From Candidatus Methylomirabilota bacterium (GTDB taxonomy: Bacteria; Methylomirabilota; Methylomirabilia; Rokubacteriales; CSP1-6), in contig DATFYA010000187.1 of assembly GCA_035315345.1 (NCBI GenBank), positions 3,436 to 67,435 on the forward strand: a DNA stretch of 64,000 nucleotides, given 5' to 3'. The notes beneath the pieces were generated by a model. It had not been told where the DNA came from and did not search any database. It saw only the letters and a program-made list of their open reading frames with translations. Shown here piece after piece: positions 37,692 through 52,169 of the stretch (position 1 is the first letter of the stretch; every line of letters starts with the position of its first letter). The translations under genes were made by a program, and so were the position numbers.

Positions 37692-38480
37692 CTAGCGGGG
37701 CAGCCAGTCCCGCAACGGCTTGACGATCGCGCCGGCCTTGACCAGGCCCTCCCGCACCGCCGCGACGATCTTGTCCGAGCCGGGGCTGTCGCCGTGGATG
37801 CAGATCGTCGCGACGTTCGCGTCGATCACCTTGCCGGTGATGGTGCGGACCTTGCCCTCCATGGCCATGCGCACGGCCTGGTCGGCTGCCTTGGCCGGAT
37901 CGGTGATCAGCGCGTCCTTGCCGAGCTTGCGGGTGACCAGCTGGCCGTCGTCGGCATAGACGCGGTCGGCGAAGCCCTCGGCGGCGATGCGCACGCCCGT
38001 CACCTTCCGCGCCTCCGCGTCGTACTTGGTCATGGCCATCGTCATCAGGATGATCTCGGGGTCCAGCTCGAGCACCTGCTCGGCGCTCGCCCGTCCCAAT
38101 GGCAGATTTTCTTCGAACATGTGGTACTGGATGCCGTGCGGCTTCACGTGCTGGATGCGGGTGCCCGCGGCCTGCGCGAAGGCGGCGAGGGCGCCGACCT
38201 GGTAGCGGTGGATGTCCTTCAGCTCGGCGGGGGACACGTCCATGCGGCGCCGTCCGAAGCCCATCAGATCGGGCAACCCCGGGTGCGCCCCCACCGCGAC
38301 GCCGTGCTGGATGGCCAGCTCCACGGTCCGGCGCATGACGTGCGGGTCACCGCCGTGGAAGCCGCAGGCGATGTTGGCCGAGGTGATGTTGGGCATCACC
38401 TCCTCGTCGTGACCGAGGGTCCAGCGGCCGTAGCTCTCTCCCATGTCGCAGTTGATGTCGATGTGGACGGGCTGGCTCAT
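37692..38480 (-). CDS. pxpA: 5-oxoprolinase subunit A / LamB-YcsF family lactam hydrolase
   Basis: MSQPVHIDINCDMGESYGRWTLGHDEEVMPNITSANIACGFHGGDPHVMRRTVELA... The LamB/YcsF signature extends over 262 aa. Confidence 0.85.
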   Translation of the reverse strand: MSQPVHIDINCDMGESYGRWTLGHDEEVMPNITSANIACGFHGGDPHVMRRTVELAIQHGVAVGAHPGLPDLMGFGRRRMDVSPAELKDIHRYQVGALAAFAQAAGTRIQHVKPHGIQYHMFEENLPLGRASAEQVLELDPEIILMTMAMTKYDAEARKVTGVRIAAEGFADRVYADDGQLVTRKLGKDALITDPAKAADQAVRMAMEGKVRTITGKVIDANVATICIHGDSPGSDKIVAAVREGLVKAGAIVKPLRDWLPR

Positions 38481-39412
38481 AGCTTGGGCAAGACCTCCTT
38501 GGCGATTCGCTCGACCTGCTCCGGCTGATACCGGTACGGGATCAGGATAATCCGATGCACGCCGGTCCGCACGTGGGCGCGCAGCTGCTCGATGCAGTCC
38601 GCCACCGAGCCGTGGATCGCGTGATCGATGGTGGATTCGCTCCAGGCCGCGGTGTCCCACTCCGTGGAGAGCCACTTCCGCATGTCGGCGGTGGTGTCTT
38701 CTCGAGATCGGCCCACGTAGATCGCGAGCTGGTTGGTGGCGGTCAGCCGGGCCGGATCCCGTCCGGCCTCGCGCGCGAAGCCCTTCACCTTCTCCCACGA
38801 CGTGGCGAAGCTCTCCGGGGTGTAGAAGTAGGTGAGCCAGCCGTCACCCACGGTGCCGGCCCGCCGTAGCACCGCGTCCACGTAGCCGCCGACCAGCACG
38901 GGCGGGCGAGGGCGCTGCGCGGTGCGCGGCACCATGACCGCCTCGCGCAGGTTGAACTCGTCCACCTTCAGGGTCACGCGATCCTGGGTCCAGAGCCGCG
39001 TCAGGATGTCGAGGTTGCGCTCGAACTGCCGCCCGCGCTGCTTGAAGGGCACGCCGACCGCGTCGAATTCGCGCGCGTACCAGCCCGCGGCCACCCCGAG
39101 GATCAGCCGGCCCCCCGAGATCACGTCGAGGCTGCCCAGGGCCTTGGCCGCCACTACCGGGTTCCGCAGCGGCAGCACCAGCACGCCGGTGCCGAGCTTG
39201 ATCTTCCGGGTACGGGCGGCGACGGCGCCCAGCATCGTGATCGAGTCCACGATGGGAAACGAGGGCTCCACGCCGAGCAGCACGTGGTCCCAGGCCCAGA
39301 GCGACTCGAAGCCGAGCGCTTCGGCGCGCTCCGAGTAGGCGTAGAGGGCCTGGATATCGGGCACCTCGCCGGGTCCCACGAAGTTGCGAATCGCCAGACC
39401 GAAGTCGGTCAT
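38477..39412 (-). CDS. LLM-class F420/flavin-dependent oxidoreductase
   Basis: MTDFGLAIRNFVGPGEVPDIQALYAYSERAEALGFESLWAWDHVLLG... 311 aa. The stop overlaps the pxpA start (ATGA). Confidence 0.82.
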   Translation of the reverse strand: MTDFGLAIRNFVGPGEVPDIQALYAYSERAEALGFESLWAWDHVLLGVEPSFPIVDSITMLGAVAARTRKIKLGTGVLVLPLRNPVVAAKALGSLDVISGGRLILGVAAGWYAREFDAVGVPFKQRGRQFERNLDILTRLWTQDRVTLKVDEFNLREAVMVPRTAQRPRPPVLVGGYVDAVLRRAGTVGDGWLTYFYTPESFATSWEKVKGFAREAGRDPARLTATNQLAIYVGRSREDTTADMRKWLSTEWDTAAWSESTIDHAIHGSVADCIEQLRAHVRTGVHRIILIPYRYQPEQVERIAKEVLPKL

Positions 39413-39470
39413 CGGGTGCGGTCCTTTCAGGGCGTTCCTGGCGGTCGACCGTTTGGTTGTTCAGGCTCTT

Positions 39471-50827: not shown

Positions 50828-51693
50828 AGGCCGCACCATTCGAGTACGTGGCGCCGGTCACCCTGGACGACGCGGTGGGCGCGCTGGCCGGCGAGGGCGG
50901 GGACGCCAAGGTCCTCGCCGGAGGACAGAGCCTGATCCCGATGCTCGCGCTCCGGCTGGCGCGGCCGACGCTGCTCGTCGACATCAACCACATCGCGGGC
51001 CTCGACGGCCTGCGCGAGTCGTCGGGCACGCTCGAGATCGGCGCGCTCGTGCGGCAGCGCCGTCTCGAGCGCTGGGCCGCGTCGCGCTCCGATCTCTTCG
51101 CCGAGGTGCTGCGCCACGTCGCCCATCCGCCGATCCGCAATCGCGGCACCGTGGTCGGCAACGTGGTCCATGCCGATCCCGCGTCGGAGCTGCCCGCGCT
51201 GCTGCTCTGCCTGGAGGGCGTCGTGGTCGCGCGCGGGCCCCGGGGCGAGCGCACCCTCGCGGCCGATCGGCTCTACCGGGCTCCGTTGACCACCTCACTG
51301 GGCGCCGACGAGGTGGCCACCGCGGTGCGCTTCGCCTTGCCGCCGGCGGGGGCGGGCTGGGGGTTCGCGGAAGTGTCGCGGCGGCACGGCGACTTCGCGC
51401 TGGTCGGCGCCGTCGCGGTTCTGGCCCGCGCGGCCGGCGGGCCGGTCACGCGCGCGCGCCTGGCCTTCTTCGGGGCCGGTGGCACCCCGATGCGGGGCGT
51501 GGCCGCCGAGCGGATCCTGGAAGGCCACGAGCCCACGCCGACCCGGCTCGGTGAGGCCGCGCGGGCGGCGGCGGCCGCGCTGTCGCCGGACGACGACATC
51601 CATGCCACCGCGGCCTACCGGCGGCGGGTGGCCGCGACGCTGGCCGAGCGCACCCTCGCGGCCGCCCTGGCGCGGTGCGGGAGCGGCGCATGA
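50824..51693 (+). CDS. molybdo-hydroxylase FAD-binding medium subunit (CoxM-like)
   Basis: ATGA overlap. [48 protein letters not shown]... with FAD_binding_5 and CO_deh_flav_C domains. Confidence 0.82.
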
Positions 51694-52169
51694 GCCGGAC
51701 GATCCGGTTGACCGTGAACGGCCAGGAGCACGAGCGCGCCGTCGAGCCGCGCACCACCCTGGCCGACTTCCTGAGAGAGGACCTCGAGCTGACCGGCACT
51801 CACGTCGGCTGCGAGCACGGCGTGTGCGGGGCCTGCACGGTGCTGCTCGACGACGAGCCGGTGCGCTCGTGCCTCATGCTCGCGGTGCAGGCCGACTCGC
51901 GGCGCATCACGACCATCGAGGGCGTGGCGCCCGCCGAGGGCCTCCATCCCATCCAGGAGGCGTTCTGGGCCAAGCACGGACTGCAGTGCGGCTACTGCAC
52001 GCCCGGCATCGTCATGAGCGCCTGCGCGTTTCTCCGCGAGCGCCCCGACCCCTCGCCGGAGGAGATCCGCGAGATGCTGGCCGGGCACCTGTGCCGCTGC
52101 ACCGGCTATCACTTCATCGTCGAGGCGATCGAGGCGGCGGCCCGCGCGCTCAGGGCGGCGGACAAGTAG
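51690..52169 (+). CDS. molybdo-hydroxylase (2Fe-2S)-binding small subunit (CoxS-like)
   Basis: ATGA overlap. [11 protein letters not shown] (plant-type 2Fe-2S) and CGYCTPG...CRCTGY (second cluster). 159 aa. Confidence 0.85.

Follow-up and report, generated by a model that had tools for sequence, protein, structure and literature searches.

A conserved bacterial gene cluster combining a family-I CoA-transferase, an F420-type oxidoreductase and a molybdenum hydroxylase: a candidate module for heteroaromatic acid catabolism

The locus among described pathways

The 2,8-dioxopurine (reductive urate) pathway of E. coli and Clostridium, with its proteins XdhD, YgfK, SsnA, HyuA, YgeW/YgeY and YgeX (PMC12507026; bioRxiv 10.1101/2025.04.24.650524), combines a molybdenum (Mo) enzyme of the XDH family, a dedicated dearomatising reductase, ring-opening amidohydrolases and a final fold-II lyase dependent on pyridoxal phosphate (PLP). 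The gene content of the locus that is the subject of this report suggests a similar logic. It lies in a stretch of 64,000 nucleotides from a Candidatus Methylomirabilota bacterium of the Rokubacteriales (contig DATFYA010000187.1, positions 3,436 to 67,435 of the forward strand; hereafter “the window”) and consists of two back-to-back operons. One, on the minus strand from gntR, encodes a regulator, a CysK-like PLP enzyme, a two-subunit family-I CoA-transferase (CoA-T A and CoA-T B), an F420-type oxidoreductase of the LLM family and the cyclic-amide hydrolase PxpA; the other, on the plus strand, starts with the gene for the substrate-binding protein (SBP) of a Liv-type ABC importer and ends with those for a three-subunit Mo hydroxylase. 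On balance, and with modest confidence, we view the two operons as one GntR-controlled unit for the catabolism of a small heteroaromatic carboxylic acid.

The likeness to the 2,8-dioxopurine pathway extends to its PLP step, which belongs to a diaminopropionate ammonia-lyase, an enzyme also present in actinobacterial variants of our cluster. That pathway, however, has neither a CoA-transferase nor F420. Its reductase is the Fe-S flavoprotein YgfK, and its substrate is a purine, which carries no carboxylate for CoA transfer. The families of YgfK, SsnA, HyuA, YgeW and YqeA were absent from Pfam and NCBIfam scans of the cluster and flank genes; no direct search with these sequences was made.

Two pyridine pathways offer a second comparison. 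The fermentation of nicotinate by Eubacterium barkeri proceeds by Mo-dependent hydroxylation, ring reduction and hydrolytic opening, with a ferredoxin-dependent reductase and no CoA. In the isonicotinate pathway of Mycobacterium sp. INA1, reportedly described by Kretzer, Frunzke and Andreesen in 1993, citrazyl-CoA is said to be reduced and then hydrolysed. The order of hydroxylation, reduction and hydrolytic opening is the one that we propose below, and in INA1 reduction likewise reportedly takes place on a CoA thioester. Both pathways nevertheless act on six-membered rings, and neither includes PxpA or a PLP enzyme. The genes of the INA1 pathway are not known to have been identified.

The HmfABC furoyl-CoA and thiophene-2-carbonyl-CoA routes also bring a heteroaryl-CoA to a three-subunit XDH-family Mo hydroxylase before hydrolytic opening, but they employ a CoA ligase rather than a transferase and have no reductive step, F420, PxpA or PLP enzyme. 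Finally, GctAB of Acidaminococcus fermentans shares with our CoA-transferase the two-subunit family-I architecture, the catalytic Glu and the GxGGxxD motif, whereas the match is distant and the genomic context wholly different. The feature detailed here is real and strongly conserved, and its combination of a family-I CoA-transferase, an F420 LLM protein, a Mo hydroxylase, PxpA and a PLP enzyme occurs in no compared system. A preliminary description of the window had stated that no known pathway has this exact gene set; our literature searches, too, found no published description of the cluster or pathway.

The conserved triad and its partners

A CoA-T A search of a representative library at 50% identity was followed by a scan of an alignment of diverse members against one genome per species. 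The best 80 of at least 576 matches were examined as loci (numbers with the prefix L below). All window proteins and the proteins of variant clusters were mapped onto these loci, and the leftover open reading frames (ORFs) were clustered. Forty-nine loci were “well-flanked”, with at least 6-7 kb on both sides. The preliminary description had suggested such a neighbourhood comparison, and the genes of the cluster do co-localise elsewhere. Those for CoA-T A, CoA-T B and the F420-type LLM protein (“the triad”) are adjacent everywhere, in about 80 loci from about eight phyla at 47-94% identity and in 49/49 of the well-flanked loci. The hosts are Rokubacteria, Binatia/Desulfobacterota, Chloroflexota, Dehalococcoidia, one Bacillota metagenome-assembled genome (MAG), Actinomycetota, and Alpha- and Gammaproteobacteria. 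The cultured hosts are Pseudonocardia acaciae DSM 45401 and Tamaricihabitans halophyticus DSM 45765 (Actinomycetota) and Sinorhizobium meliloti, in which the triad is on pSymA. CoA-T A homologues of more than 78% identity come almost wholly from Methylomirabilota/Rokubacteria soil MAGs. A homologue on a Natrinema plasmid was set aside, as it comprises the CoA-transferase pair only and falls outside the clade.

A three-subunit Mo hydroxylase is encoded within 10 kb of the triad in 40 of the 49 well-flanked loci: Rokubacteria-A (9/11), Rokubacteria-B (1/5), Chloroflexota (1/2), Binatia (6/7), Dehalococcoidia (3/3), Bacillota (1/1), Actinomycetota (14/14), Proteobacteria (5/5) and one other locus, of a Rokubacteria 50% / Nitrospinota group (0/1). 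The hydroxylases belong to two lineages. The first, Qor/CoxL-like with subunit genes in the order L-M-S, is that of the window and the proteobacterial loci. The second, in the order M-S-L and with a Mo subunit that is sometimes split, is found in Actinomycetota, Binatia, Dehalococcoidia and Bacillota and gives its best matches to 4-hydroxybenzoyl-CoA reductase (to which the actinobacterial Mo subunit is nearest), E. barkeri nicotinate dehydrogenase and PucD. The association with the triad thus outlasts a swap of hydroxylase lineage and several gene orders, which argues for functional coupling instead of inherited synteny. We regard this as strong evidence that the Mo hydroxylase and the triad are functionally coupled. 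In L042-L051 and L056 (Binatia and Dehalococcoidia) the Mo subunit is divided between two genes, one for the MoCoBD_1 part and one for the MoCoBD_2 part, an arrangement resembling that of E. barkeri nicotinate dehydrogenase.

The hydroxylase of the window has a complete XDH-family architecture, with molybdenum-cofactor, FAD and 2x[2Fe-2S] subunits and all Pfam domains present. Its atypical L-M-S order, noted in the preliminary description, is borne out by three overlapping plus-strand genes at 48476-52169. The active-site loop of the Mo subunit reads APYRGAGR, not the AYxCSFR of form I CoxL, and its scores are under the cut-offs for carbon monoxide dehydrogenase (559 versus 991 bits for TIGR02416; 788 versus 950 bits for NF040766, CODH_grp5). 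A true CO dehydrogenase was rejected on these two grounds. With PDB matches to CoxL (8uem, 547 bits) and Qor (quinoline 2-oxidoreductase; 1t3q, 509 bits), the subunit is, as judged by its sequence, Qor/CoxL-like.

The importer is also linked to the triad, orthologous Liv systems being found beside it in four phyla. The SBP of the window is 56% identical to that of S. meliloti (L008), 71% to that of L041 and 80% to that of L031. LivH of the S. meliloti cluster is 61% identical, compared with only 26-37% for generic Liv paralogues, and Liv components in L059 and L072 are 39-52% identical. In the Chloroflexota locus L041, the whole set lies on a single strand in the order SBP-LivHMGF-CoxLMS-PALP-CoAT A/B-LLM; the cluster of L055 is likewise all on one strand. 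In T. halophyticus, the order is pxpCBA, LLM, CoA-T A/B, CoxMSL, CoxG, diaminopropionate ammonia-lyase, PucR and an MFS transporter, and actinobacterial clusters have PucR regulators, an NCS1 permease, a hydantoin-racemase-like protein and CoxG. Among all the loci, recurring hydrolases are PxpA, DUF6282, isochorismatase-type and amidase-signature proteins and, in S. meliloti, a PyrC-type dihydroorotase with an ArgE/DapE deacylase. Also recurrent are Asp/Glu/hydantoin-racemase proteins (Amdase/EutA-like; maleate-isomerase/Amdase-like), CoxG, PucR regulators, and NCS1, MFS or TRAP transporters. This cross-phylum conservation shows that the arrangement is far beyond chance.

Within the triad, the CoA-transferase retains catalytic motifs. 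PF01144 (CoA_trans) is found in both subunits (91.5 and 90.1 bits), and the nearest solved relative is GctAB (PDB 1poi), at 134 bits for 1poi_A (GctA) and 149 bits for 1poi_B (GctB). CoA-T B keeps the catalytic Glu50 (MMVE50GG, aligned to IIVESG of GctB) and has GSGGAND at the GxGGxxD motif; the start codon of CoA-T A is backed by homologues of 320 aa. Because the catalytic Glu, which the decarboxylase AibB is without, is retained, CoA-T A/B is likely a genuine CoA-transferase, and a non-transferase of the AibAB or IpdAB kind is made less likely.

The LLM protein scores 197.4 bits against TIGR03619 (cut-off 166.9), and its orthologues of 47-94% identity were mapped beside the CoA-transferase genes in about 70 loci. 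In three alphaproteobacterial loci (L008, L078 and L081), the F420-synthesis genes cofC, cofD and cofGH stand beside the triad; npdG, for the NADPH:F420 reductase Fno, does so in L008 and L078, and the transhydrogenase genes pntAB in L008. These neighbours would supply F420H2, and thus point to the LLM protein working as an F420-dependent reductase. They also suggest that the F420 pathway was acquired in Alphaproteobacteria together with the catabolic cluster. Rokubacteria are themselves predicted F420 producers (PMC8498797).

Locus L008 is that of S. meliloti pSymA (CP130049.1, 43374-68249), in which cofG/H is present as a fusion. This accessory cluster, carried by strains GR4, KH35c and KH46, resembles that of the window in CoA-T A/B (47-54%), LLM (53%) and Liv proteins (51-61%), and its Mo hydroxylase is also in L-M-S order. 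To these it adds F420 biosynthesis genes, Fno, PntAB, PyrC and the ArgE/DapE deacylase but, unlike the window, it has neither PxpA nor the CysK-like enzyme. The region is known only as a match in a genome-wide association study of nodule competitiveness (PMC8407117).

PxpA of the window matches PF03746 (LamB_YcsF) at 305 bits and NF003814 at 317 bits (cut-off 226), and is 38% identical to E. coli PxpA. The preliminary description had drawn attention to the lack of PxpB and PxpC. Indeed, tblastn with the E. coli proteins found neither in the 64-kb window (best E-values 0.29-2.7), and a standard 5-oxoprolinase locus was rejected for the window on this result. The lack is a property of this window and its like, not of the cluster as a whole. 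PxpA without PxpB/C nearby occurs in 15 Rokubacteria loci and in the Bacillota locus L055, with PxpB and PxpC absent within 10-26 kb and always with a CysK-like enzyme (16 loci), whose gene is directly adjacent to pxpA in L020, L021 and L055. By contrast, Actinomycetota/Alphaproteobacteria variants carry the full set: pxpABC flanks the triad in L077 and L081, while L061 and L078 have PxpA with PxpB, and none of these four loci has a CysK-like enzyme. Thus, the hydrolase resembles the PxpA of 5-oxoprolinase PxpABC in exceeding the family cut-off and in the full pxpABC of those variants, but differs in that the window and 15 other loci have PxpA alone, paired with a CysK-like enzyme.

That enzyme falls below its equivalog cut-offs (317 versus 351 bits for TIGR01139; 324.5 versus 344 for TIGR01136), and a reading of its sequence finds most motifs in place, among them the PLP lysine (SLKDR), the STGNAG loop and the GISSG motif. 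Most loci encode a fold-II PLP enzyme, which takes one of four forms. The CysK-like form (53-92% identical) occurs in Rokubacteria, Binatia, Chloroflexota and Bacillota, and a divergent CysK-like form in Proteobacteria and Actinomycetota; a third form is threonine-synthase-like. The fourth, diaminopropionate ammonia-lyase (NF006058 357 bits, cut-off 276), was found in five actinobacterial loci and stands beside full pxpCBA in L077 and beside PxpA alone in L059. The ring-opening enzyme varies as well, yet is always of cyclic-amide hydrolase or amidase type (PxpA, PxpABC, PyrC with the ArgE/DapE deacylase, or amidase-signature).

The two operons of the window diverge from a compact control region. 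The gntR promoter is sigma-70-like (TTGACA-17-AAGAAT, 10/12 positions matched), is the sole promoter-like site in 16.5 kb and is conserved in 10 loci. Its -10 element stops 8 nt ahead of the ATG, so that the transcript is probably leaderless; the start has no Shine-Dalgarno sequence. A palindrome between the operons had been remarked upon in the preliminary description. It is present, and its position is here refined to a 24-nt inverted repeat (I3), TTTCATTTGACACGTGACATGAAA, which is symmetric at 20/24 positions and overlaps a TTGACA (43796-43801) facing the Liv operon. The palindrome is nearly invariant in ten Rokubacteria loci, whereas substitutions and indels mark the spacer around it. We propose it as a putative GntR operator, which fits control of both operons by one GntR repressor. 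A GntR regulator is encoded in 8/11 Rokubacteria-A loci.

Candidate pathway, substrate and alternatives

The preliminary description had envisaged a route of import, hydroxylation, reduction, ring opening and CoA activation. Co-localisation supports that route; we infer its chemical steps, and the substrate, from the sequences. The heteroaromatic acid would be imported by the Liv-type system, and the GctAB-like CoA-transferase would form its CoA thioester, probably recycling CoA from the reduced product. Either before or after this activation, the Mo hydroxylase would add an oxo group at the ring carbon beside the heteroatom to give a cyclic amide or thiocarbamate. The LLM protein, with F420H2, would then reduce the ring C=C conjugated to the thioester, which amounts to dearomatisation. 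PxpA would open the 5-oxoproline-like ring, and the beta-substituted alanine set free in this way would be converted by the CysK-like enzyme to pyruvate and ammonia and possibly sulfide. GntR would hold both operons off at the 24-nt palindrome until the substrate or an intermediate bound to it.

The substrate class that we favour, though only tentatively, is a 1,3-azole-4-carboxylate. In the variant of the window, thiazole-4-carboxylate would be converted to 2-oxothiazolidine-4-carboxylate and then to cysteine; in the actinobacterial variant, imidazole-4-carboxylate would yield 2-oxoimidazolidine-4-carboxylate and then 2,3-diaminopropionate. Three facts lead to this choice. PxpA and PxpABC (5-oxoproline-like) and PyrC (dihydroorotate-like) all act on cyclic N-acyl-alpha-amino acids; PLP enzymes of Cys type and diaminopropionate type alternate between variants; and orphan PxpA tracks with the CysK-like enzyme. 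Both of the proposed 2-oxo intermediates are classical 5-oxoprolinase ligands, and for a thiocarbamate ring, hydrolysis that dispenses with the ATP-dependent PxpBC is plausible. A broader and somewhat more doubtful proposal is that the cluster represents a widespread form of heterocycle dearomatisation. In it, CoA-transferase, F420H2-dependent LLM protein and Mo hydroxylase would convert azole-4-carboxylates to 2-oxo-azolidine-4-carboxylates, to be opened by a stand-alone, ATP-free PxpA or, for the cyclic urea, by PxpABC.

Several observations weigh against the proposed pathway. In the Rokubacteria-B loci, which have the triad and the PALP protein, Cox genes are found within 10 kb in only 1/5 and PxpA in 0/5; the Mo and PxpA steps are therefore not universal neighbours of the triad. 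The exchange of PxpA and CysK for PyrC and ArgE/DapE in S. meliloti, with an orthologous importer, is hard to reconcile with one identical substrate. PxpB lies 7 kb away in L022, and the window's own PxpB/C may be encoded elsewhere in the genome. True cysteine synthases are near relatives of the CysK-like protein, whose role may be no more than to trap sulfide, and relatives of GctAB include the non-transferases AibAB (a decarboxylase) and IpdAB (a hydrolase). A search of the 64-kb window for cof and fno genes found none. As to the ligand, an Rfam scan of 36000-54000 found no riboswitch or other RNA family that would name one, and the SBP, whose best PDB match scores 103 bits, has no close solved structure from which one could be deduced.

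Among the alternatives, a pyridine carboxylate fares best, although we consider it unlikely. The Mo hydroxylase would form a pyridone acid, which would be activated with CoA, reduced by F420H2 to a tetrahydro-oxo-pyridine-carboxyl-CoA and opened by lactam hydrolysis. The order of reaction types matches the isonicotinate/nicotinate model, the split Mo subunit in Binatia and Dehalococcoidia is like that of E. barkeri nicotinate dehydrogenase, and the genus of INA1 makes F420; further, some variants encode isochorismatase-type and amidase-signature hydrolases and a maleate-isomerase/Amdase-like protein. However, PxpA belongs to a family of five-membered-ring lactamases, and no enamidase-type amidohydrolase is encoded in the window. 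A pyridine substrate would also leave the near-universal fold-II PLP enzymes, diaminopropionate ammonia-lyase included, without a role.

Less likely again is a pyrrole-, thiophene- or furan-2-carboxylate. Its heteroaryl-CoA would be hydroxylated at C5, in the manner of furoyl-CoA dehydrogenase HmfABC or thiophene-2-carbonyl-CoA monooxygenase, and reduced to 5-oxoprolyl-CoA, and 5-oxoproline would pass to glutamate through PxpA with PxpBC from elsewhere; in the thiophene case, CysK would do no more than scavenge sulfide. The annotation of PxpA as a 5-oxoprolinase subunit fits this scheme, and so do its partners elsewhere: the complete pxpABC borders the cluster in L077 and L081, and L061 and L078 have PxpB alongside PxpA. 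The nearest CoA-transferase of known function uses C5 dicarboxylates, the Hmf and thiophene pathways provide precedent for Mo enzymes with heteroaryl-CoA substrates, and 4-hydroxybenzoyl-CoA reductase is the best match of the actinobacterial Mo subunit. Nonetheless, the scheme explains neither diaminopropionate ammonia-lyase nor the tight adjacency of PALP genes to pxpA and to the CoA-transferase genes; pxpBC was not found in the 64 kb; and the furoate and thiophene routes already known proceed without any reduction.

The least probable reading is that the two units are unrelated neighbours, the minus-strand operon serving an acyclic C5 acid or amino acid (by a glutaconate/2-hydroxyglutarate CoA-transferase, an F420-dependent acyl-CoA oxidoreductase, 5-oxoproline salvage and cysteine synthase), Liv-CoxLMS serving another purpose and the synteny being inherited within Rokubacteria: glutaconate CoA-transferase is indeed the transferase's best structural match, Rokubacteria-B loci are without Cox and PxpA nearby, and toxin-antitoxin, protease and egtBD genes split the units in L005, L006 and L018, but a Mo hydroxylase from either of two non-orthologous lineages is adjacent in 31/33 well-flanked loci outside Rokubacteria, in differing gene orders, L041 and L055 are single-strand, and the divergent promoters have a conserved putative operator in common.

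Layout of the locus and implications

Genes were called by third-position GC, which was used because the genome is 70% GC, followed by Pfam and NCBIfam scans of the window proteins. The features are collected in Table 1. The gene list of the preliminary description stands at its coordinates in these scans, apart from the corrections given below. Start and stop codons overlap at most junctions (PALP/CoA-T A, CoA-T A/B, LLM/PxpA, LivH/M, LivM/G, LivG/F, CoxL/M and CoxM/S), which fits two operons. The SBP gene encodes a signal peptide and has an AGGAGG ribosome-binding site.

Table 1. Features of the locus and its surroundings, in window coordinates
Feature	Position	Strand	Remarks
LLM paralogue	21590-22171		29% to cluster LLM
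EgtB-like gene, FGE-sulfatase domain	about 29253-29900	-	
LLM paralogue	32192-33052		35% to cluster LLM
123-aa ORF	36918-37289	-	GC3 0.90; no family match
pxpA, LamB/YcsF cyclic-amide hydrolase, 262 aa	37692-38480	-	Last gene of minus operon
F420-type LLM oxidoreductase, 311 aa	38477-39412	-	TIGR03619
57-bp tandem repeat, 3.5 copies	39497-39696		TRF score 372, 96% matches
CoA-transferase beta subunit (CoA-T B), family I, 253 aa	39708-40469	-	Pfam CoA_trans
CoA-transferase alpha subunit (CoA-T A), family I, 320 aa	40466-41428	-	Pfam CoA_trans
CysK-like fold-type-II PLP enzyme, 352 aa	41425-42483	-	PALP 241 bits; first catalytic gene of operon
2-Oxoglutarate (2OG)/Fe(II) oxygenase remnant, 183 aa	42489-43040	-	Pfam DIOX_N only
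GntR/FadR-type (FCD) regulator, 231 aa	43051-43746	-	Pfam GntR and FCD; first gene of minus operon
gntR promoter	43755-43783	-	Sigma-70-like
Palindrome, 24 nt	43790-43813		Putative GntR operator
Liv/HAAT-type periplasmic SBP, 390 aa	43892-45064	+	Peripla_BP_6 216 bits
LivH-type permease	45087-45959	+	BPD_transp_2
LivM-type permease	45956-46909	+	BPD_transp_2
LivG-type ATPase	46906-47679	+	ABC_tran, BCA_ABC_TP_C
LivF-type ATPase	47666-48370	+	ABC_tran
Mo-hydroxylase molybdopterin subunit (L), 783 aa	48476-50827	+	Ald_Xan_dh_C, MoCoBD_1, MoCoBD_2
Mo-hydroxylase FAD subunit (M)	50824-51693	+	FAD_binding_5, CO_deh_flav_C
Mo-hydroxylase [2Fe-2S] subunit (S)	51690-52169	+	Fer2, Fer2_2
HAD gene	52805-52194	-	Convergent with plus operon
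Enoyl-CoA hydratase	53369-54361		
Family-III CoA-transferase	57188-58582		

The locus is an ordinary chromosomal one. It had been labelled an “island”, a term that we drop: GC is 68-74% throughout the window and equal in cluster and flanks, and synteny with contig DATIWG010000035.1, whose proteins are 86-95% identical, extends into the flanks. A horizontally acquired island was rejected on the uniform GC and on the synteny in relatives of the flanks (glycosyltransferase, thiamine pyrophosphate (TPP) enzyme, aldolase-SDR). The flanking genes are unrelated to the cluster, with the glycosyltransferase and TPP enzyme on one side and an enoyl-CoA hydratase and others on the opposite side. Nor does a HAD phosphatase close the plus-strand operon, as had been thought. 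The HAD gene is convergent and lies beyond the range then given to the cluster, and none stands beside CoxS in L020 or L021.

A second correction concerns the 2OG oxygenase. The degenerate gene of the preliminary description is present, as a remnant of 183 aa with a 453-nt (151-codon) in-frame internal deletion relative to the intact 334-aa orthologues of L001, L013 and L015. The deletion takes out the H-T-D iron ligands (HxD), the 2OG-FeII_Oxy domain goes undetected, and the remnant is presumed inactive. An SDR gene that L001, L017 and L023 have between gntR and the 2OG gene is missing in the window. The slot between gntR and the PLP gene holds both SDR and 2OG genes in L010, L017 and L023, 2OG only in L012, L013 and L015 (with a 14-codon SDR stub left in L013) and neither in L011 and L016. 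This polymorphism among close relatives suggests that the two are dispensable accessories in the course of being lost.

The 57-bp repeat occupies the 295-nt spacer between CoA-T B and LLM, which is about 90 nt in L001; the spacer is enlarged also in L020, L032, L037 and L041. The rest of the window and 89 loci yielded no further copy, and no significant RNA fold was detected (folding z-score -1.18). A regulatory RNA was accordingly set aside, and the repeat is treated as a local duplication.

Other genes in and around the cluster may be noted. The 123-aa ORF shares the strand of pxpA, begins about 400 nt beyond it in the downstream direction and is conserved in some nine Rokubacteria loci (115 aa in L001). 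Between LLM and PxpA, L004 (12736-13614) and L006 (12915-13784) encode a predicted secreted protein of 289-292 aa, with no Pfam or NCBIfam match, which the window lacks. In L004/L018 (3567-8920), the core stands beside egtB, egtD, an OpuAC-fused ABC transporter and a pyridine-nucleotide disulfide reductase; this ergothioneine-gene neighbourhood is restricted to one Rokubacteria lineage and is a possible link to sulfur or imidazole compounds. The window itself has an EgtB-like gene. Of its two further LLM paralogues, that at 32192-33052 belongs to a block syntenic in relatives, which also includes an FAD/NAD reductase, a TPP enzyme and a glyoxalase, the last seen in L001. Past the cluster, and separated from CoxS by two minus-strand genes, are acyl-CoA-type genes (53369-58582) for the enoyl-CoA hydratase, a hexapeptide transferase, an SDR protein, a NUDIX protein and the family-III CoA-transferase.

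If the proposed pathway is correct, the cluster is a new catabolic module, built on a family-I CoA-transferase, an F420 LLM protein and a Mo hydroxylase and spread through about eight phyla of mostly uncultured soil bacteria. It would assign a role to orphan PxpA proteins and give F420 a concrete catabolic function outside Actinobacteria; as of a 2021 review, no F420-dependent enzyme outside Actinobacteria had been studied (PMC8498797). The hypothesis is testable in cultured carriers, namely S. meliloti GR4, KH35c and KH46, P. acaciae DSM 45401 and T. halophyticus DSM 45765, and it would give the accessory region of S. meliloti pSymA, tied by the association study to nodule competitiveness (PMC8407117), a function open to testing. 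The cluster may also hold the missing genes of old pathways that reduce heteroaryl-CoA, such as that for isonicotinate in Mycobacterium INA1. Further, were the dearomatisation proposal to hold, it would supply the reason that F420 biosynthesis genes entered Alphaproteobacteria such as S. meliloti, and would constitute the first physiological role of F420 outside Actinobacteria and archaea.

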